Source of the DNA: Anaerolineae bacterium
GTDB lineage: Bacteria > Chloroflexota > Anaerolineae > JAAEKA01
Assembly (NCBI GenBank): GCA_049294015.1
Contig: JBAQCH010000385.1
Span: 1,111-65,110, forward strand
Reading direction: 5' to 3'
DNA: 64,000 nt
Every line of letters begins with the position of its first letter. Position 1 is the first letter of the stretch. The position numbers were made by a program, and so were the translations under genes. The notes below the pieces were generated by a model that did not search any database, was not told the origin of the DNA, and was given only the letters and a program-made list of their open reading frames with translations. Below are positions 7,814 through 40,069 of the stretch, piece by piece.

Positions 7814-7908
7814 AATGCATCTATGATGGGGTTGCACAGCATGCATGAGTCTGCTACACTTGCTTCGATTCCTTCGATATCGGGCTATTCAGAACAGGAA
7901 ATGGGTTC

Positions 7909-10620
7909 ATGACACAATCCATCCATGCAGTTGCGCGCTTCCTTCTTCGTTTTGTTCTCGTCTGGCTGGTTGACGCCGTCTCCTTGCTCATTGCCGCCGG
8001 CATCCTGCCGGGGATGGAGTTTGTAACCATCGGCCCAACCCCAGCGTGGGTGGTGGCGGTGTCCGCCGCCTTCGTGATGGGCCTGGTGAACCTGCTGATC
8101 CGGCCATTGATCCTCATGTTGGCCCGGCCGCTGGGTTTCTTTGTCATGTTCGGCGTGGGCTTCCTGGTCAATGCGCTCGTCTTGCTGATCACTGCCAACC
8201 TGCTCGCGCCCGCCTTTTTGATCGGCGGCCTGCTGCAGGCCATCGTCGCCAGCATCGTCCTGGCCATCATCAACGCTGTGCTCACCGGTATCATCGAGCT
8301 AGATGACGAGGGCTCCTTTTTCCAGAACCGCATCGAACGCCAGGCCAGACGTCACATGTTCGCCGGCGCGACGGAGACGGGTCGCGGGTTGGTGATGATG
8401 GAGATCGACGGCCTTAGCTATCATCACCTCCACAAGGCGCTGGCCGATGGGTTGATGCCGACTCTGCAGCAGATGATCGACGAGCAAGGCTACGTCCTCT
8501 CCAAGGTCGATTGCGGCATCCCCTCGCAGACTTCGGCCTGCCAGGCCGGCATCCTGTTTGGCGACAACGACGACATCCCCGCCTTCCGCTGGTACGACAA
8601 GAGCGAGCAGCGCCTGATCGTCTCCACCAAGGATGCGACCTATCTGAATGCCCGCTACGCCAACGGCAATGGCCTGCTGCGCGGCGGCTCCAGCATCGGC
8701 AATATGCTCAACGGCGACGCCGAAAAGTCGCTGCTGACCGTGGCCGACATCAAGACCGACGACAAGGAGCAGCAAAAGCGGCGCGCGGAGGACATCCGCC
8801 TGCTGATGCTCCATCCCTATTTCTTCATGCGCACCATCGCCCTTTTCTTCGGCGTCGTGCTGCGCGAGCTGTGGGAGGGCTGGCAGCAGCGGCGCAAGGA
8901 TGTCTATCCCCGCCTCAACCGGCTGCACGGCGGCTATCCCTTCATCCGCGCGGCCACCTCCACGCTGGTGCGCGACCTGACGGCCAATCTGACGTTGCTG
9001 GACATCGTGCGCGGCTCGCCGTCGATCTACATCACCTGGCCCGGCTATGACGAGGTGGCGCACCACTCCGGGCCCTGGACCAGCGACGCCTTCGGCGAGC
9101 TGAAACGCTATGACCGGGTTATTGCCCGCGTGCAGCGGACCATCCAGGAGAAGGCGCCGCGGCCCTATGACCTGGTCCTGCTCTCCGACCACGGCCAGTC
9201 CTTCGGGCCGACCTTCAAGATGCGCTACGGCGTCACGCTGAAGGAGTTCATCGAGCAGCACCTGCCGCAGGGTGTGACCGTGGCGCAGTCGATGGGCGGC
9301 GACACCGGCATGACCTCGCTGACCGGCGTGTCGGGCGAGCTGGCCAACGTTCAGCAGCAGGAGGGCGGCGCCGCTGGCCGGGCCGTGGCGAAGCAAGGGC
9401 AGAAGCTGATCGAACAAGGGGCCAAGGCAGGGGAGCCGGAAGAGCTTGCCCAGGCTGCGCAGGTGACGGCCTACGGCAGCGGCAACCTGGCTCAGGTCTA
9501 CTTCGATCTCCAGCCGCGCAAGATCACCCTGAGCGAGCTGAACGAGGCCTACCCCGGCATGGTCGACGCGCTGGTGCAGCACGAGGGCATCGGTCTGGTC
9601 TGCGGCTATCTGGACGACGGGACGCCCGTGGCGCTGAGCAAGGCTGGCCAGCGCAACCTACACAGCGGTGAGGTGACGCGCGCGGACCCGCTGCTGCCCT
9701 ATGCGCCGGCCGATCCCGCAGCCTACGGCCACGCGGCCATCGAGAAACGAATCTGGCAGGTGCGCCGGGTGATGGACTTCCCCCACGCCGGCGACCTGAT
9801 GGTGATCAGCACGGTCTACCCCGACGGCACCGTGGCCGCGCTGGAGGAGCTGATCGGCAACCACGGCGGCATCGGCGGCGAGCAGACCGACGCCTTCCTC
9901 TTCCATCCAGCCGACGTTCTGGTGCCCGACACCCGTAACTCCACCGACGTGTTCCAAATTCTTAACGCCGTGCGCGGCACGCCCGTGCCCCCCAACGCTG
10001 CGGGCGCGCAGGCTGGCCAGGCCGCTGCGATCAGCGCCTGGTCGTCGTCCAACCTGGCCAGGGGCATCGGCAGCGTTGGCGTCTGGGTCGGGTGCGCCTT
10101 GCGAGCGTTGATCCTGGAGCGCAGCGCCTATCGTGAGGTGGCGCAAGACGCTTTGATGACCGGCCCGGCATTGCTGATTGCTGTGCTGGCGGCGCTGGTC
10201 GAGATGCTAGTGGTGACCGGCGGCTTCGACGGCCCGTTTCTCGCCATCCGCCTCGGCCTGTGGCTGCTGGCGGTCTTGTTCATCTTCGCTGCCGGGCGGC
10301 TGTTGAGCGGCAAGGGCGCGTTCACCAGGACGTTCCGAGCCGTGGGCTTTGCCCAAGTTGCCTGGTTCCTGGGACTGTTGGCGCTCATTCCCCCCATCGC
10401 GCCGCTGGCCCGGCTGATCACCGTGCTGTATGCTTTCTTCGCCGTCTGGCTGGGCGCTGCGGAGGCGCATGAGACCAAGGGCTGGCGCACCGTTGTGTTT
10501 CCGGTCGTCGCGTTGCTGCTCTTGATCGTCGTTGGCTTCGCGTTGCGTTCATTGCTAGCCGGCGCCGAGTTTGCTTTGTCGGCGCTGTTCAACGACTTCG
10601 GCCTGGCCCCCCAGCCGTAA
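7909..10620 (+). CDS. fusion protein: DUF360/phage-holin-4-like N-terminal membrane domain + type I phosphodiesterase/nucleotide pyrophosphatase (AlkP superfamily) + C-terminal Yip1-like membrane domain
   Basis: 903 aa; N-term 4-TM PF04020-like segment; middle domain with AlkP-core-like motifs (MEIDGLSYHHL, CGIPSQTSACQAGILFG); C-term multi-TM Yip1-like segment. Confidence 0.7.
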   Translation: MTQSIHAVARFLLRFVLVWLVDAVSLLIAAGILPGMEFVTIGPTPAWVVAVSAAFVMGLVNLLIRPLILMLARPLGFFVMFGVGFLVNALVLLITANLLAPAFLIGGLLQAIVASIVLAIINAVLTGIIELDDEGSFFQNRIERQARRHMFAGATETGRGLVMMEIDGLSYHHLHKALADGLMPTLQQMIDEQGYVLSKVDCGIPSQTSACQAGILFGDNDDIPAFRWYDKSEQRLIVSTKDATYLNARYANGNGLLRGGSSIGNMLNGDAEKSLLTVADIKTDDKEQQKRRAEDIRLLMLHPYFFMRTIALFFGVVLRELWEGWQQRRKDVYPRLNRLHGGYPFIRAATSTLVRDLTANLTLLDIVRGSPSIYITWPGYDEVAHHSGPWTSDAFGELKRYDRVIARVQRTIQEKAPRPYDLVLLSDHGQSFGPTFKMRYGVTLKEFIEQHLPQGVTVAQSMGGDTGMTSLTGVSGELANVQQQEGGAAGRAVAKQGQKLIEQGAKAGEPEELAQAAQVTAYGSGNLAQVYFDLQPRKITLSELNEAYPGMVDALVQHEGIGLVCGYLDDGTPVALSKAGQRNLHSGEVTRADPLLPYAPADPAAYGHAAIEKRIWQVRRVMDFPHAGDLMVISTVYPDGTVAALEELIGNHGGIGGEQTDAFLFHPADVLVPDTRNSTDVFQILNAVRGTPVPPNAAGAQAGQAAAISAWSSSNLARGIGSVGVWVGCALRALILERSAYREVAQDALMTGPALLIAVLAALVEMLVVTGGFDGPFLAIRLGLWLLAVLFIFAAGRLLSGKGAFTRTFRAVGFAQVAWFLGLLALIPPIAPLARLITVLYAFFAVWLGAAEAHETKGWRTVVFPVVALLLLIVVGFALRSLLAGAEFALSALFNDFGLAPQP

Positions 10621-10799
10621 ACAGAACAGGACTTACGCCAAACGCTGGTCGAGTAGGCCCGGCGGGTTTCGATACGCTGGATTTGAGCCTGCAAGATACG
10701 TGGTTGCAGCCGCCACTCAACCCACCGGCCGTATCGAGACCCGTTTTGCGTAAGTCCTGAGAGTTTTCGGACCTTTCATCGAAGGAGGCTTGCAACACA

Positions 10800-11429
10800 A
10801 TGCAGTACATTGCGACGTGGCGCAGGCAGTTCAACTGGCGCATGGTGCTGATGCGCATCGTCATCAATGCCCTGGCGCTGCTCATCACTGCCGGGCTTGT
10901 GCCCAACATCTACTTCATCGACCGCAACTTCAGGAGTTGGCTGCTGTTAGCGGTGGCTTTGGGGGTCTTGAACGCCCTTGTCAAGCCTATCATCCAATTC
11001 CTGACCCTGCGCTTCATCTTTGCCACTTATGGCCTGGTGGTGGCGCTGATCAACGGCGTGCTGCTGCTGCTGCTGGAGCTTCTGTTCCCCGGCCGCTTCG
11101 CCGTCGAGGGCATTCTCTTTTGGCCGCTGGTGGGCGGGGCGGTGATCGGCATCATTAGCGCGATCCTTGAAAGTCTGCTGGGCCTGTCGCCGCCCATCGT
11201 GTCCGAGAAGTACCCTGAGCTGCGCCAGCGCATCAAGGATGGGGAGACCGGTTCCGTGCAAGCCTTGATCACCGAGACGGCCGTCTCGAAGACCCTGGAG
11301 CCGCAACAGGCTGAACAGCCTGCCAGCAGGCCAGCTCAGGATGCCGCCGCAGTCTTGGCCGTGCTTGGAACCGACCGCGAGGCGGCAGATGTGCCGGCCC
11401 AACCGGCGCCGACAGAGCAGGAGGCCTAG
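10800..11429 (+). CDS. DUF360 (phage holin 4-like) family membrane protein
   Basis: 209 aa; paralogous to the N-terminal domain of the 7909 gene; GAAGGAGG RBS. Confidence 0.7.
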   Translation: MQYIATWRRQFNWRMVLMRIVINALALLITAGLVPNIYFIDRNFRSWLLLAVALGVLNALVKPIIQFLTLRFIFATYGLVVALINGVLLLLLELLFPGRFAVEGILFWPLVGGAVIGIISAILESLLGLSPPIVSEKYPELRQRIKDGETGSVQALITETAVSKTLEPQQAEQPASRPAQDAAAVLAVLGTDREAADVPAQPAPTEQEA

Positions 11430-11437
11430 GCCACACC

Positions 11438-13174
11438 ATGCAACAAACATCAACCCTCGACAAGGTGCGTGAGAACCTGCGCCTGCAACAGGTCTACAAC
11501 GTTTTCTTGCGCTATGGCCTGGACATCGCCTTCGAGCGCGCGCCTACCGTGGCCGCGCTGCGCACCAGCATGCAGCGCTGGGTGTGGAATCTGCCTGAGA
11601 ACCTGGAGTCGCCCGAGCTGCCGGTCAAGGTGCGCCTGATGATCGAGGAGCTGGGCCCCACCTACGTCAAGGTCGGCCAGATCGTCTCCAGCCAGGCCTC
11701 TGTGCTGCCAGCCGAGTGGGAGGCGCAACTGGCGCAACTGCAGAGCAACGTGCCCCCTTTCCCCAGCAGCCAGGTGCGCGAGATCATCATCGAGGAGCTG
11801 GGCAAGCCCCCGGAAGAGCTGTTCGCTACCTTTGAAGGCGAGGCCTTCGCTGCCGCCTCCACAGCCCAGGTGCATCGGGCAACTCTTCGCGACGGCGCCG
11901 AGGTGGTGGTCAAAGTGCAGCGGCCCAACATTCGCAACCAGATGAAAGCCGACGTGGGCATCATGCGCAACGCGTCGCGCGTGTTGTCCAACCGCTTTCA
12001 GGCGCTGCGGGCCATCGACCTGGCCGGCATGGTGGACGAGTTCGGCACCAACGCCATCCGCGAGCTGGACTACACCGGCGAGGCCTACAACTCCTTCCGC
12101 CTGACGCAGAACATGGCCAGCATCCCCGGCGTGCATATCCCCAAGATCTTCCCGGAGCTGTCCAGCGACAAAGTGCTGACCATGGAGTTCATTCGCGGCG
12201 TCAAGATCAGCAACCTGGAAGCCATCGACGCTGCCGGGCTGGACCGGGAGGCGCTGGCCAAGAACGCCCTGCGCGCGATCGTCAAGCAACTGCTGATCGA
12301 CGGCTTCTTCCACGCCGACCCGCACCCCGGCAACGTGCTGGTAGAGCTGGGTACCGGCGATATCGCCTTCATCGACACCGGCATGGTGGGCGAGCTGGAG
12401 CTGGCGCAACGGCTGAACATCATCCAGTTGCTGATCGCCGTGACGCAGAACGACGTGACCGGCATGGCCTCGGTGATGAAAAGCTTGAGCACGCCCTTTG
12501 TAGACAAGGTGGACGAAAAGGCCTACTACAAGGACTTCGAGCGCACGGTCGGCCGGATCATGATCTCAGGCGGCGCGGTCGATTTTGGCCACGCGGTGAG
12601 TCTGTCCATGGACTTATTACGCCAGCACGGGCTGCGGCTGGACCCCAACCTGACCCTGGCCATCAAGGCGCTGATGCAGGCCCAGGCCATCGCCGTGCTG
12701 CTGTACCCAGAGGGCGGCATCGTCGCCGACGGTGTGCAGATGATCCGGGAGGAGGCGCTCAAGGCCGTCACTGCCGACCGGCTCTTCGAGGAGGGCAAGA
12801 AGCAGCTCACCATGGTGGCGCGCCAGGCAGCCGGCAACCTGCCCAGCCTGTCCGAGGCCACCATGGGATGGCTAAACCAGTACCGCAAGGGCCGTTTCGA
12901 GGTTTACGTGGATACCTCCGGCGTGGCCAAGGAGGTCACCAAGATCAACCACCTCGGCCGGCAGTTGGTGGTCGCGCTGCTGGTGGTGGGCATGGTTATC
13001 GGCTCGGCCATCGCCACGGTGGGCATCGGCTTGGGCGAATTCACTGGCCGTTACTGGGACTTCATCGCCCAGATTGCCGTCTTCGGCTACATCTTCTCGT
13101 CGATCATTGCGGCTTTGATCGTGCTGCGCCTGATCTGGCGCTGGCTGCGCGGCAGCCCGGCGGATCGGGACTGA
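11438..13174 (+). CDS. ABC1/UbiB-family atypical protein kinase with C-terminal TM region
   Basis: 578 aa; ABC1 kinase motifs (ELGPTYVKVGQ, AAASTAQVHRA, HADPHPGN). Confidence 0.8.
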   Translation: MQQTSTLDKVRENLRLQQVYNVFLRYGLDIAFERAPTVAALRTSMQRWVWNLPENLESPELPVKVRLMIEELGPTYVKVGQIVSSQASVLPAEWEAQLAQLQSNVPPFPSSQVREIIIEELGKPPEELFATFEGEAFAAASTAQVHRATLRDGAEVVVKVQRPNIRNQMKADVGIMRNASRVLSNRFQALRAIDLAGMVDEFGTNAIRELDYTGEAYNSFRLTQNMASIPGVHIPKIFPELSSDKVLTMEFIRGVKISNLEAIDAAGLDREALAKNALRAIVKQLLIDGFFHADPHPGNVLVELGTGDIAFIDTGMVGELELAQRLNIIQLLIAVTQNDVTGMASVMKSLSTPFVDKVDEKAYYKDFERTVGRIMISGGAVDFGHAVSLSMDLLRQHGLRLDPNLTLAIKALMQAQAIAVLLYPEGGIVADGVQMIREEALKAVTADRLFEEGKKQLTMVARQAAGNLPSLSEATMGWLNQYRKGRFEVYVDTSGVAKEVTKINHLGRQLVVALLVVGMVIGSAIATVGIGLGEFTGRYWDFIAQIAVFGYIFSSIIAALIVLRLIWRWLRGSPADRD

Positions 13175-13505
13175 ACGGCGTCCAGCACTTGCGGCGTCTC
13201 TGGCCGGCAATAGCGGCTGCACGAGAAGCTTCACAAACGCACAGGAGGCTGGGCGCGGCGTATTCGCGCCCTGTGGCTGGCCGGCCGATCTGAGTGACGA
13301 AGCGATCTTGGAGCGGCTGTTGGCGCTGAACGGGGAACGGGCAGCGGCGCCAGTCTAACGCCCCACGCTCGTTTGCCGCCACCGCCGTTTCGTGGATAAT
13401 GGGGCAAAGCCGGGATTATCGTTTCGCAACTGCACCCAACCTGCGCATCCGCTGGCATCGACCGCGCCAGTTGCGACACCGAAATCTGCCCGGACCTTTC
13501 GTCTC

Positions 13506-16106
13506 ATGCCCCACGACTATTCGACACTGATTACAACCAAGCTCCACCGTCCCCAGGTGGCCGGTGTACACGTCGAACGGACGCGCCTGCTCCAGCAGAT
13601 GCAGCGCGGCCTCAGCCAGCCGCTGACCCTGGTCTGCGCCGGAGCCGGTTTCGGCAAGACGACGTTGGTTAGTTGCTGGCTGGCGCAGAACGATGAACGC
13701 GCAGCGCTGAACGATGAAGCGGGCGCGGCGGAGACCTCTGCCTTTCATCGTTCATCGTTCAACCCTCATCATTTCCCCTCCGCCTGGCTAACGCTGGACG
13801 CACAGGATAGCGACCTGGGGCGATTTGCGGTCTATGTCGTTGCCGCGCTGCGCACGATGTTCCCCGACGCGTGCAGCGCAACCCTGGAGTTGGTGCATAC
13901 ACGAGCGGAGCCTCCCCTGGAGTTGCTGGCTGCCACCCTGATCAATGAGATCGCCCAACTCCCCAAGCATTTCGTCCTGGTTCTGGATGCCTTCGGCTCC
14001 CTTTCTGGCGAGGCTGTCCCTGATCTGCTGAACCGGTTGTTGCAGCACTGGCCGCCCACCATGCATCTGGTGCTGATCTCGCGCTTCAGCCCGAGCTTGT
14101 CGCTCGCCCGGCTGCGGGCCAACGGCGAGATCACCGAAATCCGTAGCCGCGACTTGCGTTTCACGGCCGAGGAGACGGCGGCCTATCTGGACCTGGCGCT
14201 GCCCACCCCGCTCAGCCAGCCGGCCCAAACCACGCTCGAGCAACGGGCCGAGGGATGGGTCGCCGGCCTGCAGCTAGCCGTTCTAGCTCTGCGCACGATG
14301 AGCGAGGCCGACATCGACGCAGCGATTGGCGCAGTGGTCGGGGTCGACGCAGTACAATATTTGGTAGACGAGGTTCTCGCGCATCAGCCGCCGGCGATTG
14401 AGGATTTTTTGCTCAGAACGTCAATCCTGGATCGCTTCTGTGCATCCTTGTGTGAGGCGGTCGCAGGCGGCGATGATGCCGGATGGACGGCGCAGGAAAG
14501 CCTGGCTTGGGTCGAACAGGCCAACCTGTTCGTCATATCGATGGACTATCAGCATGAGTGGTTTCGTTATCACAACTTGTTCCGGGAGACGCTGCGCCAG
14601 AGGCTGAACCACCGCTGGGGCCCGGACGAAGTGACCCGCTTGCACCGCGCGGCAGCCAAGTGGTTTGCGGAAAAAGGGTTGATCGATGAGGCGTTGCGCC
14701 ACGCCCTGGCGGCCGACGATCTGGAGCAGGCCGCCACCTTGATGGAGCATGCCCTGTGCGACGTGCTCAACCATGAGGACTGGCCCGCGCTGGCCCGCTG
14801 GCTGCGCCTGCTGCCCGAGGAGTCTGTCGAACGCCACCCCGGCATCCTGATGATCAAAGTGTGGTCGCTGCATTGGTCCTGGCAGCTTGACGCCATACCT
14901 CCGCTGCTCGACCAGATCGATAGGCTGATCGACGAGATTGGCCCCGGGGGCGACCTGCCAGCGCTGCGCGGGCAGATCGCTTTGCACCGTGCGCAGATCG
15001 CGTATATGCACAACCAGCCCGCCCGCGCCCTGGCCCACTGCCAGGAAGCATTGGCGCACCTGCCCAAAACGTGGCTGCACGGCCGCGGCAGCGCCATGTT
15101 GTTCACCGGCATGAGCCTGCAAGCCTTGGGCCGGGGCGACGAAGCCGAGCGCCTGTTGCGCAGCCAGTATGAGAGTCTTGGCGACTTGACAAGCAACTAT
15201 GCCATCCGGCTGCTGTTTGGCCTGACGGCCGTTTATTTTCAGTCGGGCCAGTTCGAGCTGGCCCGGCAGGCAGCCCAGGGAATGCTCCATCAGGCCGTGC
15301 GCAGCCGCTTGCCGATCCTCGAAGGTTGGGCTACGCTCTATCTCGCCAGGGTCTGGTATCACTGGAATGACTTGGATCAGGCCAGCCAAAGCTTCGAGAA
15401 GCTGGTCGACAAGCGTTATGTCATCCACAGCCAAACGGCGCGCAACAGTTTCGTAGGCCTGGCGCAGACACTGCAGGCGCGCGGCCAAAGCGTCGAGGCA
15501 TGGGAAGTGTTAGGGCTGCTCAGCCGCTTCGACCTGGATCTTGTCGGGCAGGAAACCGGCGACACGCGTGCTTTGCGCGCCTGGTTAGCGTTGGCGCAGG
15601 GCGATCGGGAACTCGCCTTGCGCTGGGCAGACTCGTTTTCTGCCCCGGCGTCGGAGCGCCCTTTTATCTGGGTGCAACAGCCGCACCTCATCAAGGCGTG
15701 TATCATGCTGGCCAGGGGCGGGAAGTCCGACATTCAGTCGGCCCTTGAGATCGCCGACGCCATCTACGCGATTGCCGAACGAGCGGCCAGCACGGACTTC
15801 ATGATAGCAGCCCTGGCTGTGCGTGCGCTGGCGCTCGATGCCGCGCAGCAAGCTGATGCTGCTCAGGCGGCGCGCGGTTGCGCTGGCCCAGCCCGGCGGC
15901 TTAATCCGGCTATTCGTCGACCTGGGGCCGCACATGCAGACGTTGCTGCGCCAACTGGCCAGGGACGAAGCGTCCAACGAGCTCGTCCGGCGCATTCTGG
16001 CCGCATTCTCAGACGCGCACGATGGAGCGGCCGGGGAGACAGCCGCGCGGCCTGCGCCGCGATCGTTCAAGGTGGCCGGCCTGGTGGAGCCGCTGACCAT
16101 GCGTGA
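13506..16106 (+). CDS. MalT-like LuxR-family regulator (AAA ATPase + TPR), apparently frameshifted before the HTH domain
   Basis: TKLHRPQ start motif; Walker A GAGFGKTT; paralog of the 42339 gene; reading frame diverges from the paralog around 15860-15880. Confidence 0.65.
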   Translation: MPHDYSTLITTKLHRPQVAGVHVERTRLLQQMQRGLSQPLTLVCAGAGFGKTTLVSCWLAQNDERAALNDEAGAAETSAFHRSSFNPHHFPSAWLTLDAQDSDLGRFAVYVVAALRTMFPDACSATLELVHTRAEPPLELLAATLINEIAQLPKHFVLVLDAFGSLSGEAVPDLLNRLLQHWPPTMHLVLISRFSPSLSLARLRANGEITEIRSRDLRFTAEETAAYLDLALPTPLSQPAQTTLEQRAEGWVAGLQLAVLALRTMSEADIDAAIGAVVGVDAVQYLVDEVLAHQPPAIEDFLLRTSILDRFCASLCEAVAGGDDAGWTAQESLAWVEQANLFVISMDYQHEWFRYHNLFRETLRQRLNHRWGPDEVTRLHRAAAKWFAEKGLIDEALRHALAADDLEQAATLMEHALCDVLNHEDWPALARWLRLLPEESVERHPGILMIKVWSLHWSWQLDAIPPLLDQIDRLIDEIGPGGDLPALRGQIALHRAQIAYMHNQPARALAHCQEALAHLPKTWLHGRGSAMLFTGMSLQALGRGDEAERLLRSQYESLGDLTSNYAIRLLFGLTAVYFQSGQFELARQAAQGMLHQAVRSRLPILEGWATLYLARVWYHWNDLDQASQSFEKLVDKRYVIHSQTARNSFVGLAQTLQARGQSVEAWEVLGLLSRFDLDLVGQETGDTRALRAWLALAQGDRELALRWADSFSAPASERPFIWVQQPHLIKACIMLARGGKSDIQSALEIADAIYAIAERAASTDFMIAALAVRALALDAAQQADAAQAARGCAGPARRLNPAIRRPGAAHADVAAPTGQGRSVQRARPAHSGRILRRARWSGRGDSRAACAAIVQGGRPGGAADHA

Positions 16107-16287
16107 ACGGGAGATTCTGTTGCTTCTGCGCGAGCCCTTGAGCGGCAAAGAAATCGCCAAAACCCTCTTTATCTCCCCCACAACCTTCAAACGCCACAGC
16201 GCCAACATCTACGGCAAGCTGGGCGTTCATAATCGCTGGGACGCCGTGGCAGCGGCCGATGCGTTGGGCGTTCTCCCGCCCCGCTGA
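15823..16287 (+). pseudogene. C-terminal LuxR HTH portion of the preceding regulator, in +1 frame (frameshift or sequencing error)
   Basis: AVALAQPGGLIRLFVDLGPHM...LTMREREILLLLREPLSGKEIAKTLFISPTTFKRHSANIYGKLGV aligns with the C-terminus of the LuxR at 42339. Confidence 0.55.
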
Positions 16288-16444
16288 CTGCGCCAGACCT
16301 CTTCGGGTTTTCCTGGTCGACCGCAACCAGTCGACCAAGCTCAATCTACCACCCTACCCGCCGCAGCGGCGTACCAATCTACAACCTACTTGATACCTTT
16401 GGAGGGTTTCGCACGGACGCGCCCTGTGCTACCATCATGACAAG

Positions 16445-16735
16445 ATGAGCACATCGCTTGCCGCCCACTTGAGTTTCGATAGCGCTGCCCGGTACCGCAT
16501 CCTCGTGCGCGGCCAAATTGCGCCGCGCTGGGCCGACCGGCTGGAGGGCATGTCGATCCATCTTGCGGCACAGCAAGACGAGCCGGCTATCACCATCTTG
16601 GAGGGCGAGTTGTTCGACCAGGCCGCGCTGGCCGGCGTGCTCAACACGCTGTACGACATGCACCTGCCGGTGCTATCGGTAGAGTGCCTGAGCGCCGGGC
16701 GGCAGGCGCCGTCGTTGCAATCGTCCGAGACCTGA
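16445..16735 (+). CDS. small soluble protein of unknown function (LuxR-module partner, paralog of 45344)
   Basis: 96 aa; conserved with 45344 product (DQAALAGxLNxLYDxxLPxLSVECL). Confidence 0.55.
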   Translation: MSTSLAAHLSFDSAARYRILVRGQIAPRWADRLEGMSIHLAAQQDEPAITILEGELFDQAALAGVLNTLYDMHLPVLSVECLSAGRQAPSLQSSET

Positions 16736-16825
16736 GCGACCGCAGGAGCCGATCACGTCCACAGTCCGGCGGCAGTCGCAGGCTACAATCGCCGCTCTTT
16801 ACTCAACTCTCAGGAGGATATCACC

Positions 16826-17167
16826 ATGCCTTGTCTGTTCGCTATGTTCGCTGGCTTCTTCCCACGACTCGGGACTCTGCTCCTCTGGCTGGCTCGTCCC
16901 GCCATGGTCAACACTGCCTTCAATGGCAGTTGGCTCTGGCCGATCCTGGGCATCATTTTCTTACCCTTCACCACGCTGATGTACATCATCCTGGCGTCGG
17001 GCGTCGGCGGGTTGAGCGGTTTGGATTGGCTGTGGATCGTCTTGGCTGTGATGATCGACGTGATGCACTACTCCAGCACGGCCTACTCTAACCGCAATCA
17101 GATCCCTGGCTACAAGCCGGCCTCGACCGCTCCCGCGACTCCGCCGCCGCCGTCACAGCCCATGTAG
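16826..17167 (+). CDS. small 3-TM membrane protein of unknown function (paralogs at 41924 and 45803)
   Basis: 113 aa; MPCLFAMFAGFFPRLGTLLLW... about 80% identical to the 45803 product; AGGAGG RBS; Pro-rich tail. Confidence 0.65.
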   Translation: MPCLFAMFAGFFPRLGTLLLWLARPAMVNTAFNGSWLWPILGIIFLPFTTLMYIILASGVGGLSGLDWLWIVLAVMIDVMHYSSTAYSNRNQIPGYKPASTAPATPPPPSQPM

Positions 17168-17417
17168 GCGCTGGCAAATGGTGATCCTGGCGCGACTGAG
17201 CCAGGCAACACCACCAGCCGAGCACCAGTATGACTCCGCTGAGAAAGCCTATCGACTAGGCCCATCGCCACCCACGGCCTGATTGGGCATCTCTGACCCG
17301 ATCAACGCAGATATGCCAGCTTCGGATCAACCCCAAAACTGGCATATCTGCTGGTTTCTCAGCGCTTCTACGGCCTGCGCACCACCAACGTACCACCTCG
17401 ATGTCAAGGAATCAACC

Positions 17418-19316
17418 ATGAAGCTGCGACCTCGTGCAGCCTTACTTCTCCGTGTGGGCGCTCTCCTGACGGGGCTCATGCTCCTCCTGGTGGGTCTCGC
17501 TGCCGCGCAGGGTCAGCCTGTGCGCACGCAGCGCATCACCGCTCGCCTGCAGGCTGGAGAGACCCACGCGTATCTGCTGCAAGACCTGCAGGCAGGGGAC
17601 AGACTCACCGTCTCCATGCAGGCCACTTCTGGCAACCTGGACCCTGCGATCGGCATCGTGGACACCTCCAGGCCGCTGGACGAAGCCATGGCCGCCTACC
17701 AGGCGGACCTCCAGCGCCTTCTGGCTGAGAACGAGGGTGCAGCCCAGGCCGTAGAAGCGCTGCGCGACCAGACCTTCCTGGCTTGGGACGATGATAGCGG
17801 CGCGGGCTATGCGGCCGCCCTGGCCTTCGACGTGCCGGCTGCAGGCGACTACGCGTTGATCGCAGCCAGCTCGCTGTCAGCCCTCGGCCGCGCCACCTTT
17901 GGCGACTACGAGCTGGTGCTCGGACTCGACTCGCTTACCAGCCAGGATGGAGCGGCCTTGCCGGCGGACGCGCCCATCGCCCAACGGCTGCCAGGCGTTT
18001 GGGGTCTGGCCGTGTCGGTGGAAGAAGCATCAGGCACGCTGACGGCCGCTGCGCCCACGGCCAGCCTGAAGCTCGTCGATCTCGACGCCGGTCAGAGCCT
18101 CACAGCGTACGCCGAAGCCACCTCGGGCAACCTGATCCCGGTGGTCATTCTGCGCGACTTCGGCGGCAAGGCGCTCGAAGCCGGCAACCTGGGCGGTCAG
18201 GAACCGCGGGCGACGCTGGCGTACACCACGACGGAAGGCGCCGTCGGCTACACGCTTACCGTGCAGGCCGGTGCGCTGCCAGATGGAACCGTGACCGAGG
18301 GAGACTACCGCGTGCTGGTGGGTGTCAACGCGCCGGACGTTTTGACCGGCCAGGCGCAGCCGCAGGGCAGCCAAGTGCTTGAAGCTCCCATCGAGGTTAA
18401 GGCTGGCGTCAGGATCCTGCGCATCAGCGCGGTGAACTCGCAGGACGAGAACTTCACCGTGATCGGGAATCTTCGGATGGACTGGATGGACCCCCGGCTG
18501 GCTTTCAGTCCGGACACCTGCAACTGCACCGTGAAGCTCTACACCGACAAGGAGTTCGACCGCTTCCTCGCCGACGTGGGCAGCCGCTGGCCGGCCTTCA
18601 CCTTTTTCAACCAGTTGGGGAATCGGTGGGTGCCGAGCCGGGCGGCGGCGATCTGGCCCGATGGACGCGTCCGCTACGCCGAGAGCTTCAACGCCACCTT
18701 CCAGGCTGATTTCGACTTCCGGCAGTACCCCTTTGATTCTCAGACCTTCCCGATCTATCTTGATCTGGTCTTTCCGACCACGAGCTACACCTTGGCGGAG
18801 TTGCCCGGCTTCAGTGAAATCGACCCGGCGCACGGGGAAGATGAGTTTATCATCAGCGAGTTCACGGCCACACCCAGCACCGAGGCGCCCAGCGCCGCGG
18901 ACGACCCCGTCTCACGGATGACCTTCAGCTTCAGCGCGCCGCGCCATCTGAACTATTACACCCTTCAGGTCTTTCTGCCCATCATCCTGATCATCCTGAT
19001 CTCGTGGTTCACCTTCTTCCTGCGCGATTACACCCGGCGCATCGAGGCCGCGGCCGCCAATATCCTGCTTTTCATCGCCTTCAGTTGGAGCCTGGCTGAC
19101 AACTATCCGCGCCTGGGCTACCTCACCTTCCTGGACGCGGTCATGACTGTGACCTTTGCCGTGAACGTCCTGGTGTTGCTCTACAACGTGGTCATGAAAC
19201 GGCTGGAGAACCAGGGCAAGGACGAACGCGTCAAGCGCATCGACGATGTCCTCGACTGGTCCTACCCCCTGATGTACGCTGCTTTGATCGGCGTGGTGGT
19301 TGTGCTGTTCTTCTGA
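17418..19316 (+). CDS. prokaryotic pentameric ligand-gated ion channel (Cys-loop receptor family) with N-terminal tandem extra domains
   Basis: signal peptide MKLRPRAALLLRVGALL; two ~110-aa repeats (TSGNLDPAIGIVD / TSGNLIPVVILRD); ligand-binding-domain motifs (LRMDWMDPRLAF, FRQYPFDSQTFPIY); M1-M4 TM helices (YYTLQVFLPIILIILISWFTFFL). Confidence 0.75.
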   Translation: MKLRPRAALLLRVGALLTGLMLLLVGLAAAQGQPVRTQRITARLQAGETHAYLLQDLQAGDRLTVSMQATSGNLDPAIGIVDTSRPLDEAMAAYQADLQRLLAENEGAAQAVEALRDQTFLAWDDDSGAGYAAALAFDVPAAGDYALIAASSLSALGRATFGDYELVLGLDSLTSQDGAALPADAPIAQRLPGVWGLAVSVEEASGTLTAAAPTASLKLVDLDAGQSLTAYAEATSGNLIPVVILRDFGGKALEAGNLGGQEPRATLAYTTTEGAVGYTLTVQAGALPDGTVTEGDYRVLVGVNAPDVLTGQAQPQGSQVLEAPIEVKAGVRILRISAVNSQDENFTVIGNLRMDWMDPRLAFSPDTCNCTVKLYTDKEFDRFLADVGSRWPAFTFFNQLGNRWVPSRAAAIWPDGRVRYAESFNATFQADFDFRQYPFDSQTFPIYLDLVFPTTSYTLAELPGFSEIDPAHGEDEFIISEFTATPSTEAPSAADDPVSRMTFSFSAPRHLNYYTLQVFLPIILIILISWFTFFLRDYTRRIEAAAANILLFIAFSWSLADNYPRLGYLTFLDAVMTVTFAVNVLVLLYNVVMKRLENQGKDERVKRIDDVLDWSYPLMYAALIGVVVVLFF

Positions 19317-19473: not shown

Positions 19474-20475
19474 ATGGCATACAACCTACGCAACCGCAGC
19501 TTCGTCAAGGAACTGGACTTCACACCCGGCGAGCTTCAATTCTTGCTCAAGCTGTCGGCCGATCTGAAAGCCGCCAAGTATGGCGGCTACGAGCAGCCGC
19601 GGCTCAGCGGCAAGAACATCGCCCTGATCTTCGAGAAGGCCTCGACCCGCACCCGCTGCGCGTTCGAGGTGGCGGCCTACGACCAAGGCGCGCACGTCAC
19701 CTACCTGGGGCCGTCCGGCTCCCAGATCGGCCACAAGGAGTCGATGAAAGACACGGCCCGCGTGCTGGGCCGCATGTACGACGGCATCGAGTACCGTGGC
19801 TTCGCCCAAGCCACAGTCGAGACGCTGGCTCAATACGCCGGTGTGCCGGTCTGGAACGGCCTTACCAACGAGTTTCACCCCACCCAGACGCTGGCCGACT
19901 TCCTGACCATGATCGAGCACAGCGACAAGCCCGTGGGGCAGATCGCTTACTGCTACCTGGGCGACGCGCGCTTCAACATGGGCAACTCGCTGATGGTGAT
20001 GGGCTGCAAAATGGGCATGGATGTGCGCATCTGTGCGCCGCGCAGCCTGTGGCCGGCCGAGGAGCTGATCGCCACTTGCCGTGAGATTGCGGCCGAGACC
20101 GGCGCGCGCCTGCTGGTCACCGAGGATGTGGACGCGGGTGTCAAGGGTGTGGACTTCCTGCACACTGACGTCTGGGTCAGCATGGGCGAGCCCAAGGAGG
20201 TTTGGGCCGAGCGCATCAAGCTGCTTTTGCCCTACCAGGTCAACGCGAAAACCGTTGAGCGCAGCGGCAACCCCCACGTCAAGTTCATGCACTGCCTGCC
20301 GGCCTTCCACAACCGCGAGACCAAGGTCGGCGAGGAGATCTATCAGCAGCACGGCCTGGACGGGCTGGAGGTGAGCGAAGATGTCTTCGAGTCGCCCCGC
20401 TCCATCGTCTTCGACCAGGCGGAAAATCGTATGCACACCATCAAGGCGATCATGGTGGCGACGTTGGGCGAATAG
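19474..20475 (+). CDS. argF: ornithine carbamoyltransferase
   Basis: STRTR carbamoyl-phosphate motif, HCLP motif, 333 aa; TAAGGAGA RBS. Confidence 0.9.
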
Positions 20476-20480
20476 CGCCA

Positions 20481-20555
20481 GGTAGATTGGTAGATTGGTA
20501 AACCGGTAGATTGGTCAGCTTTTTCGCGAGACTCAACCAATCTACCAATCTACCA
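20481..20555 (+). repeat. long hairpin built from GGTAGATTGGT repeats downstream of argF
   Basis: ggtagattggtagattggt ... accaatctaccaatctacc, with a third direct copy in the loop. Confidence 0.6.
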
Positions 20556-20580
20556 GCCGTGTTGAACTGATCAAAAAGGA

Positions 20581-23379
20581 ATGAGAATGTCGAGACTTCA
20601 GTTAGATGTAGAAGAAAAGGTTGAGCACAAAGCCCCTCGTTTCGTGGATGTGACGGAGCAGAAGCGGCTGAACGACGCGCGTGAATTGGGCATCCCCTGG
20701 AAGAAGTGGGGGCCATACCTGAGCGAACGCCAATGGGGCACGGTGCGTGAGGACTACAGCGAGGACGGCAACGCCTGGGACTACTTCACCCACGACCAGT
20801 CCCGCGCGCGGGCCTACCGTTGGGGCGAGGACGGCCTGGGCGGCATCTCGGACGACGAGCAGCGCCTCTGCTTCGCCCTCGCCCTGTGGAACGAGCGCGA
20901 CCCCATCCTCAAGGAGCGCGCCTTCGGCCTCACCAACAGCGAGGCGAACCACGGCGAGGACGTCAAGGAGTACTACTTCTACGTCGACTCGACCCCCACG
21001 CACTCGTACATGAAGTACCTCTACAAGTACCCGCAGCGGGAGTTTCCGTACCGCGACCTGGTGGAAACGAACCGGGGCCGGTCGCGCGAGGAATTCGAGT
21101 ACGAGCTGCTGGACACCGGCGTGTTCGACGACGACCGCTACTTCGACATCTTCGTCGAGTACGCCAAAGCAGGGCCAGACGACATCCTGATCCAGATCAC
21201 CGCCCACAACCGCGCGCCTGAGGCCGCCCGGCTCCAGGTGCTGCCGACGCTCTGGTTCCGCAACACCTGGTCATGGAAAGAGGGGACGCCGAAGCCCAGC
21301 CTGCGAGCCGCTGACGGCGCGATCCACGCCTCGCACCCGGAACTGGGCGAGGTCACGCTCTTCTGCGATGGCGCGCCGGAACTGCTCTTCACGGAGAACG
21401 AGAGCAACGCCCAACGGCTCTGGGGCCAGCCCAACGCCTCGCCCTGGGTCAAGGACGCCTTCCATCGCTACGTCGTCTCCGGCGACGCCTCGGCCGTCAA
21501 CCCGGCCAAGACGGGCACGAAGGCCGCTGCGCGCTACGTGCTCGACGTGCCGGCCGGCGGCTCGGCTGCCATCCGCCTGCGGCTGTCGGCCGCTGCGCCG
21601 GTCGAGCCCTTCGGCAAGGACTTCGCCGCAACGGTCGCCGCGCGCCTGGCCGACGCCGACGAGTTCTACACCCGCATCACGCCGCCCGCCTTGGGCGAGG
21701 ACGAGCGCCGGGTTCACCGCCAGGCGCTGGCGGGCATGCTCTGGGGCAAGCAGTACTACCTCTTCGACGTGGACACCTGGCTCAAGGAGCACGAGGCGCA
21801 TCCGCTGGTTGGGACCGCCAGGCGCGCCGTGCGCAACGCCGAATGGTTCCACATGTTCAACGGCGACATCATCTCCATGCCCGACAAGTGGGAATACCCC
21901 TGGTACGCCGCCTGGGATCTGGCCTTCCACACGCTGGCGCTCTCGCTGGTCGACTTCGACTTCGCCAAGGAACAGCTCTCGCTGATGCTGCGCAGCCTCT
22001 ATGCCCACCCCAACGGGCAGATCCCGGCCTACGAGTGGAACTTCAGCGACGTGAACCCGCCTGTCCACGCCTGGGCCACGCTCTTCCTTTACAAGATGGA
22101 GCGGGACCTGGGACGGGAGGATATCAAGTTTCTGGCTCGCTCCTTCCACGGCCTGACGCTCAACTTCAACTGGTGGGTTAACCGCAAGGACCCGCAGGGC
22201 CGCAACGTCTTCGCCGGCGGCTTTCTGGGCCTCGACAACATCGGCGTCTTCGACCGCAGCGCGCCGCTGCCCACCGGCGGCACGCTGGAGCAGGCCGACG
22301 GCACCGCCTGGATGGCCTTCTATTGCCAGAACATGCTGGAGATGGCCCTGATCCTGGCCGATCACGACCCGGAGTACGAAGAGTACGCCTACAGCTTCCT
22401 GCAGCACTTCATCTGGATCGCCTACGCCATGGACCGCATCGGCGAGCACCACGACGAGATGTGGGACCAGGCCGACGGGTTCTACTACGACGTCCTGCGG
22501 CTTCCCGATGGATCGGCCACGCGCCTGAAGGTGCGTTCGATGGTGGGGCTGCTCCCGCTCTGCGCCAGCACGATCTTCGAGGCCGACAGCCTCACCAAGC
22601 ACCCGCGGCTGATGGAGCTGATCGCGCTCTTCCGCGAGCGCCACCCAGAGGTCGTTGCGAAGGTCGCCCCCACGGCCGAGGGCTACGTGGGCCATGCCGA
22701 CCGGCGCTTGCTCTCCACCCTCTCGCGCGACCGGCTGGAGCGCGTCCTCGGCTACCTGCTGGACGAGAACGAGTTCCTGAGCCCCTACGGCATCCGCTCC
22801 CTCTCGCGCTACCACCAGGACCACCCCTTCGTCTTCCAGGCCGGCGGCCAGGAGCTCAGCGTCGGCTATCTGCCGGCCGAGTCGAACACAGGGATGTTCG
22901 GCGGCAACTCGAACTGGCGAGGGCCGGTCTGGATGCCCGTCAACGGTCTTATTGTGCGCGGCCTGCTGAACCTCTACAGCTTCTACGGCGACGACTTCAC
23001 CGTCGAGTGCCCCACCGGCTCCGGCAACCGCATGACGCTCTTCGAGGCGGCGCGCGAGATCTCCGGGCGGTTGGCCAACCTCTTCCTGCGGGATGCCAGT
23101 GGTCATCGCCCTGTCTACGGAGGATCGGCGAAGTTACAGGAGGATCCCCACTGGCGTGACCTGATTCTCTTCTACGAGTACTTCCACGGCGACAACGGCG
23201 CCGGCCTCGGCGCCAGCCACCAGACCGGCTGGACGGGCGTCATCGCCCGCTTGCTGGACCTCTTCGGCCGCCTGGACGCCGAGGATATGTTGATGACGCC
23301 CAAGGAACGGCTTGCGGAACGTCTGGTCCGTGAGCAAGTGGGCGGCAAGAAACAGGAGCCAACCATCCAGATGGTATAG
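20581..23379 (+). CDS. GH63-family glycoside hydrolase (mannosyl/glucosyl-glycerate hydrolase-like, YgjK-like)
   Basis: 932 aa; conserved N-terminal WGPYLSERQWGTVREDYS... and (alpha/alpha)6 C-terminal region typical of GH63-like enzymes. Confidence 0.65.
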   Translation: MRMSRLQLDVEEKVEHKAPRFVDVTEQKRLNDARELGIPWKKWGPYLSERQWGTVREDYSEDGNAWDYFTHDQSRARAYRWGEDGLGGISDDEQRLCFALALWNERDPILKERAFGLTNSEANHGEDVKEYYFYVDSTPTHSYMKYLYKYPQREFPYRDLVETNRGRSREEFEYELLDTGVFDDDRYFDIFVEYAKAGPDDILIQITAHNRAPEAARLQVLPTLWFRNTWSWKEGTPKPSLRAADGAIHASHPELGEVTLFCDGAPELLFTENESNAQRLWGQPNASPWVKDAFHRYVVSGDASAVNPAKTGTKAAARYVLDVPAGGSAAIRLRLSAAAPVEPFGKDFAATVAARLADADEFYTRITPPALGEDERRVHRQALAGMLWGKQYYLFDVDTWLKEHEAHPLVGTARRAVRNAEWFHMFNGDIISMPDKWEYPWYAAWDLAFHTLALSLVDFDFAKEQLSLMLRSLYAHPNGQIPAYEWNFSDVNPPVHAWATLFLYKMERDLGREDIKFLARSFHGLTLNFNWWVNRKDPQGRNVFAGGFLGLDNIGVFDRSAPLPTGGTLEQADGTAWMAFYCQNMLEMALILADHDPEYEEYAYSFLQHFIWIAYAMDRIGEHHDEMWDQADGFYYDVLRLPDGSATRLKVRSMVGLLPLCASTIFEADSLTKHPRLMELIALFRERHPEVVAKVAPTAEGYVGHADRRLLSTLSRDRLERVLGYLLDENEFLSPYGIRSLSRYHQDHPFVFQAGGQELSVGYLPAESNTGMFGGNSNWRGPVWMPVNGLIVRGLLNLYSFYGDDFTVECPTGSGNRMTLFEAAREISGRLANLFLRDASGHRPVYGGSAKLQEDPHWRDLILFYEYFHGDNGAGLGASHQTGWTGVIARLLDLFGRLDAEDMLMTPKERLAERLVREQVGGKKQEPTIQMV

Positions 23380-23441
23380 CGCGATAAGGAGATTCGCCTA
23401 CGATTTCAGCCTTTCTGTGGGGCGGCCTGGCGGCCGCCTCC

Positions 23442-24119
23442 TTGCTGATCGGCTTTGTCCTGGCCGGCCGCGGGCTGTCCAACCGCGCCATCGGCTTGAT
23501 CATGGGCATCGGCGCGGGCGCGCTGATCAGCGCCATCGCCTATGAGCTGCTGCCTGAGCCGGCGGTGGAGGGATGGATCACGGCCGTGGCCTTCCTGCTG
23601 GGCGCGCTGGCCTTTTTTACCGGCGACTGGCTGGTCGACCACCGCGGCGGCCGTGACCGCAAGGCCATCGCCGGCCAGCAGGCGGAAGGCTCCGGCGCGG
23701 CTATCTTCATCGGCACGCTGCTTGACAACGTGCCCGAGTCGATCATCCTGGGCATGAGCCTGGCCCTGGGCGGCGCGATCAACGCCGCCTTCCTGGCCGC
23801 GGTCTTCGTCTCCAACCTGCCGGAGGGCGTGGCCGGGACGGTCAATCTGACCAGCTCAGGCGTGGCCCGGCGCAAGGTGTTCTGGCTGTGGACGGCGTTG
23901 GTCCTTGTCTCGGCCGCGTGCGCGGCGTTGGGCTACGCGGCTGTGACCGCGCTGCCCGCTGTCGATGGCCGCGCGGCACAGGCCTTTGCGGCCGGCGCCA
24001 TGCTGACCATGCTGGCCGACGCCATGATGCCCGAGGCGTTCGAGCACGGCGGCAAGCTCGTCGGCCTGTGTACGGTGTTGGGCTTTCTGGCGGCAGCAGT
24101 GCTATCTTTTATGGAATAG
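23442..24119 (+). CDS. ZIP-family metal (zinc/iron) permease, ZupT-like; true start probably further upstream
   Basis: HNxPEG-like motifs (DNVPESII, SNLPEGVAG); TTG at 23442; an in-frame upstream TM segment (FLWGGLAAASLLIGFVLAG) lacks a canonical start codon. Confidence 0.6.
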   Translation: MLIGFVLAGRGLSNRAIGLIMGIGAGALISAIAYELLPEPAVEGWITAVAFLLGALAFFTGDWLVDHRGGRDRKAIAGQQAEGSGAAIFIGTLLDNVPESIILGMSLALGGAINAAFLAAVFVSNLPEGVAGTVNLTSSGVARRKVFWLWTALVLVSAACAALGYAAVTALPAVDGRAAQAFAAGAMLTMLADAMMPEAFEHGGKLVGLCTVLGFLAAAVLSFME

Positions 24120-24124
24120 GTATC

Positions 24125-25003: not shown

Positions 25004-25078
25004 GATTCTGTCAATCTCCTTGCCGATCTGCAAGGGGTGCTGTAAAATGAACTGCCTGGTTACCAAGGAGAACCAACC

Positions 25079-25948: not shown

Positions 25949-25966
25949 TCCAAGAAGGAGAACTCA

Positions 25967-28822
<2,856 letters not shown>

Positions 28823-39446: not shown

Positions 39447-39508
39447 TCGCACCGCCAAGACCCTTCGGGTTTGCCGTAAACCCAAAGGGTCTGGAAGCGA
39501 GGAAAACA

Positions 39509-40057: not shown

Positions 40058-40069
40058 GAGAGAAGCACT

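Follow-up and report, generated by a model that had tools for sequence, protein, structure and literature searches.

The 64,000-nucleotide (nt) window analysed here, positions 1,111 to 65,110 of contig JBAQCH010000385.1 (assembly GCA_049294015.1) of an Anaerolineae bacterium, with a G+C content of 64.6%, contains two modules in which a large MalT-like LuxR regulator, a signal transduction ATPase with numerous domains (STAND), is followed on the same strand by the gene for a small soluble protein, called sol here, and by that for a small membrane protein with three hydrophobic helices, called mem. Module A consists of LuxR-A, solA and memA (13506–17167, +) and module B of memB0, LuxR-B, solB, memB and a META-domain gene (41924–46790, +). 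Judged from gene order across genomes, the conserved core of the cassette is the MalT-type regulator together with the small gene after it; mem and META are looser, lineage-specific neighbours. With moderate confidence we propose that each module is a regulator-target unit, in which the STAND regulator would activate sol as its dedicated output or feedback partner. Every functional statement below is based on comparative sequence evidence.

A MalT-like regulator gene ends just upstream of sol in several phyla

The synteny of sol was studied in 78 genome loci at sol homologs, scanned with hidden Markov models (HMMs) and phmmer. These are the nearest loci and not the whole family, many of them are metagenome-assembled genomes (MAGs), and some contain nanopore frameshifts that break the open reading frames (ORFs) of LuxR genes. 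Gene calls based on the G+C content of third codon positions (GC3) also lower some per-cluster counts, both in the clustering of neighbours and in the operator scans described below.

Results showed that a MalT-like LuxR gene ends less than 700 bp 5' of sol, on the same strand, for 56 of the 79 sol genes that have 1 kb or more of upstream sequence. In 5 more the LuxR gene is divergent, and 18 have none, several of these being near misses (L006, L045, L075, L077). The direct pair is not confined to Chloroflexota, as it was also found in two isolates of Kribbella (Actinomycetota) and in one Nitrospinae MAG. In MAGs of Gammaproteobacteria and Acidobacteriota the LuxR gene lies 0.9–1.7 kb 5' of sol, and a remote member of the sol family sits behind a PAS-MalT-LuxR gene. 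Between the LuxR stop codon and the sol start codon lie about 130 nt (median), enough for either gene to have a promoter of its own.

The spacer in front of sol contains a predicted operator and promoter

From its conserved motifs, the LuxR-sol spacer is predicted to hold a LuxR-type operator and an activator-dependent promoter, and two operator types were distinguished. In the A-type, found in front of solA, two or three TACACCT heptamers follow each other with 11-bp phasing and the last one forms a palindrome with 2-bp spacing, the layout of the spacer being …TCTACACCTaaaaTACACCTcaaaTACACCTttAGGTGGTGtttttacgcg…cTATCAT…ATG. The phased heptamers of solA (GCGTACCAATCTACAACCTACTTGATACCTTTGGAGGGTT) occupy positions 16369–16408 (+), and the extended -10 element TGCTACCAT of its promoter lies at 16427–16435 (+), 9 nt before the ATG and with no -35 hexamer. 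In the B-type, found in front of solB, the operator TACACCTTTTTTGCGCACTTTCGG is made of two 11-bp direct repeats (45186–45209, +), an exact match to the pattern; it is followed after about 23 nt by the extended -10 element TGATAGTCT (45233–45241, +), beyond which a structured leader extends for about 100 nt. This operator is kept in the loci L001, L009, L011 and L079, and more loosely in L004 to L032, and the -10 element is kept in L001, L009 and L011.

The motif TACACCTT is present in 15 of 58 LuxR-sol spacers (maximum of 5 in shuffles), and in 13 loci the last A-type box begins 49–53 nt before the ATG. Sites resembling two inverted heptamers 2 bp apart (7-2-7), with the proximal consensus TACACCT-TT-AGGTGGT, occur in 13 of the 58 spacers and always start 50 or 53 nt before the ATG, whereas shuffled spacers have 0.2 such sites on average and at most 2. 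Moreover, 34 of 58 sol genes have a -10-like hexamer that ends 5–10 nt before the ATG (9.6% at random positions). A hexamer so near the start codon suggests that most sol mRNAs are leaderless and, in the case of solA, implies a predicted mRNA that is leaderless or nearly so. No sigma-70 -35/-10 pair was predicted 5' of solA, and a canonical sigma-70 promoter was therefore rejected for this gene. Likewise, a riboswitch or known RNA in the spacers was rejected, as the Rfam scan of the window found neither.

We scanned 1.68 Mb with a position weight matrix (PWM) built from 12 spacers. The scan gave 60 sites, 41 of them directly 5' of called sol genes, compared with 10 sites in shuffled sequence; the solA operator, a training sequence, is the top match in the window (20.4 bits). 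The B-type pattern matched 25 sites in all loci and 1 in shuffled sequence, and it has exactly two matches in the window (45186–45209 and 38776–38799), with 0 expected in 100 shuffles. Overall, an operator is present within 300 nt upstream for 45 of 81 sol genes, or for 30 of 66 once the training loci are set aside, compared with 7 of 1024 other genes. These seven are two DUF1269 genes, a LOR (LURP-one-related) gene, the gene of an unannotated protein, c30, a sulfatase gene occupying the usual place of sol in L027, a gene of the c9 family with an A-type operator between LuxR and sol in L048, and one other gene.

The repeats could also be bound by another factor, or be structural or terminator-like elements at the 3' end of the LuxR gene, adjacency to sol then reflecting co-inheritance. 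This would agree with an operator assignment made from sequence, with the abundance of long hairpins and repeats in the spacers of this genome, and with the intact state of the solA site although LuxR-A is broken (see below). However, the boxes are not hairpins but direct repeats with helical phasing and a fixed distance to the -10 element and the ATG, and they match the NarL heptamer and the 7-2-7 layout known for helix-turn-helix (HTH) domains of the GerE type (PMC4886647, PMC4549865). They also stand ahead of sol genes near which no LuxR gene ends (L005 is one case) and ahead of unlinked operons, as at 38776. We regard an origin of the boxes other than as operators of the regulator as improbable. 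Finding a conserved LuxR-type operator together with an activator-dependent promoter in front of sol argues that sol is a target of the regulator and not an upstream sensor.

sol is a large family with a predicted ferredoxin-like fold

solA (16445–16735, +) encodes 96 amino acids (aa) and scores 117 bits with the sol HMM; solB (45344–45658, +) encodes 104 aa, 100% identical to NCBI locus tag WA040_22875. The two proteins share the C-terminal motif DQAALAG..LN.LYD..LP.LSVECL, as the initial annotation of this DNA had noticed. The same annotation had placed the small soluble and membrane proteins outside named families, and indeed neither sol nor mem has a Pfam, NCBIfam or PADLOC match, nor does the sol profile have a PDB sequence match. 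Conservation beyond this genome, which had been left to HMM or BLAST searches, is extensive for both: the sol profile, compared with 1.84 billion cluster representatives (50% identity), gave 7628 matches at E≤1e-3 and 2122 at E≤1e-10, nearly all of 80–110 aa, and mem gave 885 matches.

The AlphaFold2 (AF2) model of SolB (mean predicted local distance difference test (pLDDT) 75.6, core blocks 86–90) has a beta-alpha-beta-beta-alpha-beta core, formed by the elements E13-20, H27-30, E35-39, E47-54, H57-70 and E74-79. As modelled, the fold is ferredoxin-like (ACT/RAM-like), and the structural match scores to RAM/ACT modules are within the generic ferredoxin-like range. The motif G.[FL].DQAAL.G.L is located at the beta3-alpha2 junction.

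We also noticed an antisense ORF of 173 aa (45185–45706, −) that overlaps solB with coding-like GC3, and that the GC3-based gene caller picks over solB in the window and in L079. It is most likely a high-GC shadow ORF, and automatic annotation could err in the same way.

Dedicated partner or stress effector

sol might instead be a plain stress effector, protective and membrane- or ligand-binding like BON or ACT proteins, with no part in feedback or signalling, and linked to the LuxR gene as the first gene of its regulon. The same operator is found ahead of small membrane and stress genes, it can precede a sol gene with no adjoining LuxR (L005), and in L027 and L048 it is followed by another gene, sulfatase or c9, in the sol place. 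In addition, UniProt automatically names the Kribbella homologs 'BON domain-containing protein'. However, the Kribbella proteins P0389, P0392 and P0393 have no Pfam BON match up to E 10, and the hhalign comparison of the sol profile with a manually entered OsmY sequence was insignificant (probability 0.3%, E 0.19), so that a BON domain was rejected for sol. The alignments contain no signal peptide or hydrophobic segment either. Finally, a generic effector need not co-diversify with a regulator and would not be expected as the sole universally kept neighbour across phyla. We consider the plain effector role rather unlikely, if still worth keeping in mind. Because sol is the sole target kept across phyla and diverges with the regulator (45% identity between the two modules, compared with 82% for mem), we favour a dedicated output or feedback partner over a generic effector.

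Several points weigh against a dedicated regulator-target unit. The co-variation of LuxR and sol distances (r = 0.84 for 39 pairs, a value reached by 0 of 2000 Mantel permutations), which speaks for such a unit, is also expected from simple co-inheritance. Some sol genes have no LuxR nearby (L003, L005, L019, L023 and the remote member P0308). The operator models are strict and leave 36 of the 81 sol genes, Kribbella included, without a match; they miss diverged variants, among them the A-type orthologs of the window and the Kribbella sites, and upstream of the Kribbella sol genes a different palindrome was noted by eye alone. Domain fusions are suggestive at most as a clue to function: a tandem sol (P0243) and sol joined to a SpoIIAA-like domain (P0307, P0358) were found, the latter domain scoring below the Pfam threshold. 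Because LuxR-A carries a frameshift, module A could be dead or under the control of a paralog. Moreover, what we observe is the synteny and the operator with its position and its preference for sol; that the adjacent LuxR binds the boxes, that it activates and does not repress, and what sol does are inferred.

mem belongs to a variable set of neighbours

Comparing the window sequences with each other by tblastn showed that the parts of the two modules have diverged unevenly. MemA (113 aa, 16826–17167, +), with its three hydrophobic helices and Pro-rich tail, and MemB (113 aa, 45803–46144, +) are 82% identical over 97 aligned aa, in line with the value of about 80% proposed initially; the divergent paralog MemB0 (97 aa, 41924–42217, +) is about 40% identical to MemA and likewise to MemB. 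SolA and SolB share 45% identity across 75 aa, and LuxR-A and LuxR-B share 36% across the N-terminal 770 aa and 51% in the C-terminal HTH. Identities so uneven point to an old paralogy of the modules, and a recent segmental duplication was ruled out on this ground.

The initial annotation had suggested that sol and mem might be, for example, a receptor or anti-regulator pair acting upstream of the STAND regulator, with LuxR, sol, mem and sometimes META forming one signalling unit. MalT itself is restrained by the transporter subunit MalK, which would favour such a pair. mem comes right after sol in both modules of the window (gaps of 90 and 144 nt), and directly follows it also in the relatives L001, L009, L011, L014 and L079 and in L030, L043 and L123–L136; mem is strongly conserved as well, with a mean column identity of 67% and invariant Cys3, Pro13, Arg14, Asp66, Trp67, Trp69 and Asp77. 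On the contrary, of the 77 sol-anchored loci 26 have a mem gene after sol on the same strand, and in only 13 are the two no more than about 700 bp apart, so that the whole cassette does not behave as one unit. mem is beside sol, in either direction, in about a third of cases, and among 80 mem-anchored metagenome loci LuxR-sol adjoins mem in only about a third of those whose flanks were long enough. The LuxR-sol loci from outside Chloroflexota yielded no mem gene.

The steadiest neighbours of mem are instead DUF6325, LOR, DUF1269, SHOCT and a second mem paralog, and neighbour clustering adds TM198-like, c9 and META genes to the recurrent ones. sol, for its part, is placed like a target, behind a promoter predicted to be regulated, and the 82% identity of the mem paralogs beside much more diverged LuxR and sol argues that mem is not tuned to a given regulator. 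Thus the proposed co-localization with a STAND regulator held strongly for sol and, for mem, in only about a third of the loci with enough flank, and nothing indicates a receptor or anti-regulator role for mem, which travels with small membrane and stress genes. We give a receptor or anti-regulator pair very little credence compared with a regulator-target unit. No operator was found immediately 5' of mem among all loci scanned; mem and META are probably read through from the sol promoter or have promoters of their own, and by their gene neighbourhoods they are probably a variable set of small membrane or envelope genes outside the conserved core.

The matches to mem are mostly unnamed metagenomic sequences, the few named ones coming from Anaerolineae, Anaerolineales or Caldilineales, and the AF2 model (pLDDT 65, predicted template modelling score 0.38) was too poor for a fold search. 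The META-domain protein of module B (46305–46790, +) has an N-terminal hydrophobic signal-like segment and scores 39.7 bits with Pfam META (PF03724, gathering cutoff 24 bits). A second META-domain paralog of 244 aa is encoded at 29230–29964 (+; 49.3 bits), and its META region (29596–29961) is 51% identical to the first.

One regulator is intact and the other is split

The duplicated cassette with a partial third copy that had been described is indeed present, as two full modules and the start of a third LuxR gene, and all ORFs that had been named are where they had been placed. One of them requires a correction: the LuxR gene given as 13506–16287 does encode a MalT-like sensor part and an HTH, but in two frames and not as a single ORF.

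LuxR-B (42339–45074, +) is an intact MalT/LAL-type (LAL, large ATP-binding LuxR-family regulators) STAND regulator of 911 aa, with a P-loop nucleotide-binding oligomerization domain (NOD), MalT-type tetratricopeptide repeats (TPR) and a GerE HTH in the same polypeptide. It matches Pfam TPR_MalT with 83.6 bits (cutoff 45), GerE with 64.4 bits at residues 847–900, and AAA_16 with E 5e-6, below the gathering score. The ORF of LuxR-A (13506–16106, +) contains the P-loop NOD, a winged-helix domain (WHD) and the MalT-type TPR part (TPR_MalT 88.2 bits with the same cutoff; AAA_16 E 8.9e-5, below the gathering score), is truncated by a frameshift and has no in-frame HTH; WHD_MalT and TPR_MalT are on record for an identical product in locus L159. 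The translations of LuxR-A and LuxR-B show Walker A motifs (APAGSGKTS and GAGFGKTT). Both proteins remain under the equivalog cutoff of 537 bits of NCBIfam MalT PRK04841 (322.5 bits for LuxR-A, 393.7 bits for LuxR-B), which makes them relatives and not orthologs of MalT. Of the third MalT-like LuxR gene (63859–63999, +) only the N-terminus, 47 codons, lies within the window before its end; it has the LLATKLHRPRL motif common to LuxR-A and LuxR-B, weak evidence for a MalT-like identity. Among the PADLOC models for anti-phage STAND proteins, LuxR-B has matches in the HTH region only, and LuxR-A, sol, mem and META have none; a defence system was ruled out, since the matches are confined to the HTH.

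The frameshift of LuxR-A is caused by an 8-bp deletion within 15860–15880 (+; …caggctgcgctgcggcg… changed to …caggcggcg…). With the L076 ortholog as reference, which is unbroken, 930 aa long and 76% identical, DNA alignment and tblastn (frame 1, then frame 2) place it at about 15866. The NOD-TPR ORF ends at 16106, and the GerE HTH (15823/16099–16287) continues in a different frame, where the remnant ORF of 62 aa (16099–16287, +) is found; the ORF 15823–16287 scores 56.7 bits with Pfam GerE, and the 62-aa gene is also called separately in L159 and L160. Two independent Logan assemblies, SRR28060807 and SRR28060529, contain the identical split into 866 and 62 aa, which indicates that the frameshift is real in the population and makes an assembly error unlikely. 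The ATG of the HTH ORF (16099) overlaps the stop codon of the 866-aa sensor ORF (ATGCGTGA), an arrangement typical of translational coupling. LuxR-A might therefore work as two coupled polypeptides and not be a dead pseudogene. As its regulator is split, module A may nevertheless be crippled in this organism.

LuxR-B has a consensus-like promoter (TTTGCT, 18 nt, TATAAT; 42301–42330, +) located 8 nt before its ATG. With no operator attached, this promoter suggests that LuxR-B is made constitutively. Downstream, a perfect hairpin with 19-bp arms (45114–45175, +) parts the LuxR-B and solB transcription units. Near-perfect inverted repeats are also present as a large palindrome at about 40880–41030, in the spacer between the SHOCT and TM198-like genes, and as a hairpin at about 42236–42272, before the LuxR-B promoter; together with the hairpin at 45114–45175 they may be REP-like (repetitive extragenic palindromic) or terminator elements. 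Just 5' of memB0 we observed a tandem array of the heptamer AGTGTCA (41774–41849, 10.6 copies) followed by an inverted array of CACCTGA (41872–41904, 4.7 copies), and the two could form a long imperfect hairpin.

Other predicted members of the regulon and neighbouring genes

The second B-type operator of the window, TACAACCTTTTTACATACTTTGGG (38776–38799, +), lies 5' of an operon of DUF1269, LOR, DUF6325 and SHOCT genes (38820–40818, +; identified by Pfam and by the recurrent neighbourhood), which is closed by a strong terminator (40831–40864). Equivalent sites precede DUF1269 or LOR in L001, L007, L009 and L011. This operon is a predicted part of the regulon of the B-type regulator. The gene of c30 (294 aa, no Pfam match; 37743–38627, −) is divergent from the operon, and a weaker operator-like site on the minus strand (38676–38699) faces it, with the same arrangement in L011; c30 is a possible member of the regulon.

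The operon and the adjoining gene of a TM7S3/TM198-like membrane protein (41107–41772, +; assigned by Pfam, synteny kept in L009, L011 and L079), which lies beside memB0, form the window copy of the mem neighbourhood, from 38820 to 42217, immediately 5' of LuxR-B. The whole order DUF1269-LOR-DUF6325-SHOCT-TM198-mem-LuxR-sol-mem-META was seen again in these three loci. The string from DUF1269 to the TM198-like gene, present in L001, L009, L011, L079, L102 and L109, is a recurring one in Anaerolineae and Caldilineales, where mem and c9 often accompany it, and in the window (38820–41772) it looks like a membrane or envelope-stress island. A survey of the PSP (phage shock protein) response to envelope stress reportedly mentions SHOCT 19 times. 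The c9 family (L048, L061, L066, L105, L117, L130) comprises unannotated membrane proteins of about 100 aa (MKTIKSVNVGSF…GGLKINVE); their genes often lie between LuxR-sol and mem or immediately before mem, and are absent from the window.

A weaker A-type operator-like site (TACACCTAAAATGCATCT…TGGGGT; 7793–7832, +) is the second best PWM match in the window (10.3 bits) and is followed by a -10 element, CTACACT, at 7854–7860; its pattern has 4 matches in the scan, compared with 1.08 expected by chance. It precedes the genes at 7909–13174. The first of these (7909–10620, +) encodes a 903-aa fusion of a domain of holin superfamily IV (Phage_holin_4_2) with a phosphodiesterase/nucleotide pyrophosphatase domain of type I and a Yip1 membrane domain, and is followed by a holin-IV-like gene (10800–11429) and an ABC1/UbiB kinase gene (11438–13174).

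Right after memA, the gene at 17283–19316 (+) encodes a protein of 677 aa with Neur_chan_LBD at residues 367–488, an N-terminal extension of about 330 aa and C-terminal hydrophobic segments; the same gene, called at 632 aa, also follows mem in L159 and L160. The product looks like a homolog of prokaryotic pentameric ligand-gated ion channels with an extra domain. The region between the modules (19474–29964) encodes an OTCase-like carbamoyltransferase, a GH63-like glycosidase, a diacylglycerol kinase-like protein, PPK2, a P-type cation ATPase and the second META protein; PPK2 and the P-type ATPase are found again near sol and mem in L058.

A model for the regulator-sol unit

We propose the following sequence of events. 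A MalT/LAL-type STAND activator would be made constitutively, as the LuxR-B promoter suggests, and once triggered it would oligomerize, by analogy with MalT and AfsR. The oligomer would then occupy the array of TACACCT-type heptamers in the spacer 3' of its own gene, where two or three boxes phased by 11 bp would stand in for the -35 box and where, in the A-type, the proximal box would form a NarL-like 7-2-7 palindrome centred about 42–45 bp before the start. The bound regulator would switch on the next gene, sol, from a leaderless mRNA (A-type) or one with a leader of about 100 nt (B-type). In this lineage it would drive, through the same operator, also the DUF1269-LOR-DUF6325-SHOCT operon and the divergent gene.

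By analogy with AfsS and AfsR, sol is most likely a protein-binding module that would feed back on its cognate regulator or relay the signal. More tentatively, and with a chance we consider low, the sol family could consist of auto-induced partners that bind the sensor/NOD part of the regulator or a downstream target and thereby latch or reset the response.

Comparison with known systems

Chloroflexota and Actinomycetota are rich in MalT/LAL-type STAND regulators, which control antibiotic gene clusters in Streptomyces. Apart from E. coli MalT, little is known of the signals and partners of this class. A recognizable operator allows regulons to be predicted from sequence, here one of small membrane and envelope-stress genes, and sol becomes a candidate partner protein for these regulators; if sol does latch or reset the response of its regulator, feedback modules of this kind would be widespread in the class. 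Two protein families that are blank in current databases, sol and mem, also gain names. The initial annotation had considered the system undescribed, and a keyword-limited literature search found no prior description of either family or of their link to the regulator. As the LuxR-sol pair occurs in culturable Kribbella, the model is directly testable.

We compared the system with four known ones. Stand-alone RAM/ACT modules (STS042, TTHA0845, SSo6206) differ from sol, which has no detectable sequence relationship to them (no Pfam and no PDB match).

In the AfsR-AfsS system of Streptomyces coelicolor, afsS is located immediately downstream of afsR and, to our knowledge, AfsS is a 63-aa repeat-containing peptide restricted to Streptomyces. 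AfsR, a STAND protein with NOD and TPR parts, acts on two 11-bp direct repeats that overlap a poor -35 element and thereby activates the small gene afsS (PMC10936776). Both systems thus combine a large NOD-TPR STAND activator with a small downstream gene, a pairing seen here for the 56 of 79 sol genes, and both have direct repeats phased by 11 bp at the -35 region of the promoter of the small gene, AfsS being the main output of AfsR. Unlike the regulators described here, which have a C-terminal GerE HTH, AfsR binds DNA by an N-terminal Streptomyces antibiotic regulatory protein (SARP) part (OmpR-like plus bacterial transcriptional activation (BTA) domain). sol is also different from AfsS in being, as modelled, a folded alpha/beta domain, with no Pfam family and found in several phyla, and the two are not expected to be related in sequence. 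The parallel is one of logic, by analogy, and not of family membership.

MalT of E. coli and the LAL proteins share with our regulators the order of P-loop NOD, winged helix, MalT-type TPR/sensor and GerE HTH. MalT uses arrays of MalT boxes at promoters without a good -35 element, and the arrays in front of sol likewise take the place of such an element. However, the boxes here are of the TACACCT type and not MalT boxes, and no maltose genes are nearby. The protein effectors of MalT, namely MalK, MalY and Aes, are unlinked enzymes or transporter subunits, whereas the candidate partner here is a dedicated adjoining small protein.

The third likeness lies in the operator. The NarL heptamer is TACYYMT (PMC4886647), to which TACACCT conforms; NarL prefers inverted heptamers 2 bp apart, for example TACCCCTAAAGGGGTA, and its activating 7-2-7 sites are at -40 to -49 (PMC4549865). 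The consensus TACACCT-TT-AGGTGGT resembles TACCCCT-AA-AGGGGTA, and the sites lie about 40–50 bp upstream, as do the activating sites of NarL and NarP at napF and yeaR (PMC4886647, PMC4549865). In contrast to NarL and NarP, which are two-component response regulators, the regulator here is a STAND ATPase; in addition, there are extra direct heptamers at 11-bp phasing, and the B-type operator has direct repeats only. From its domain order the regulator is best described as a new member of the MalT/LAL class, and its predicted operator as a NarL-like heptamer array.

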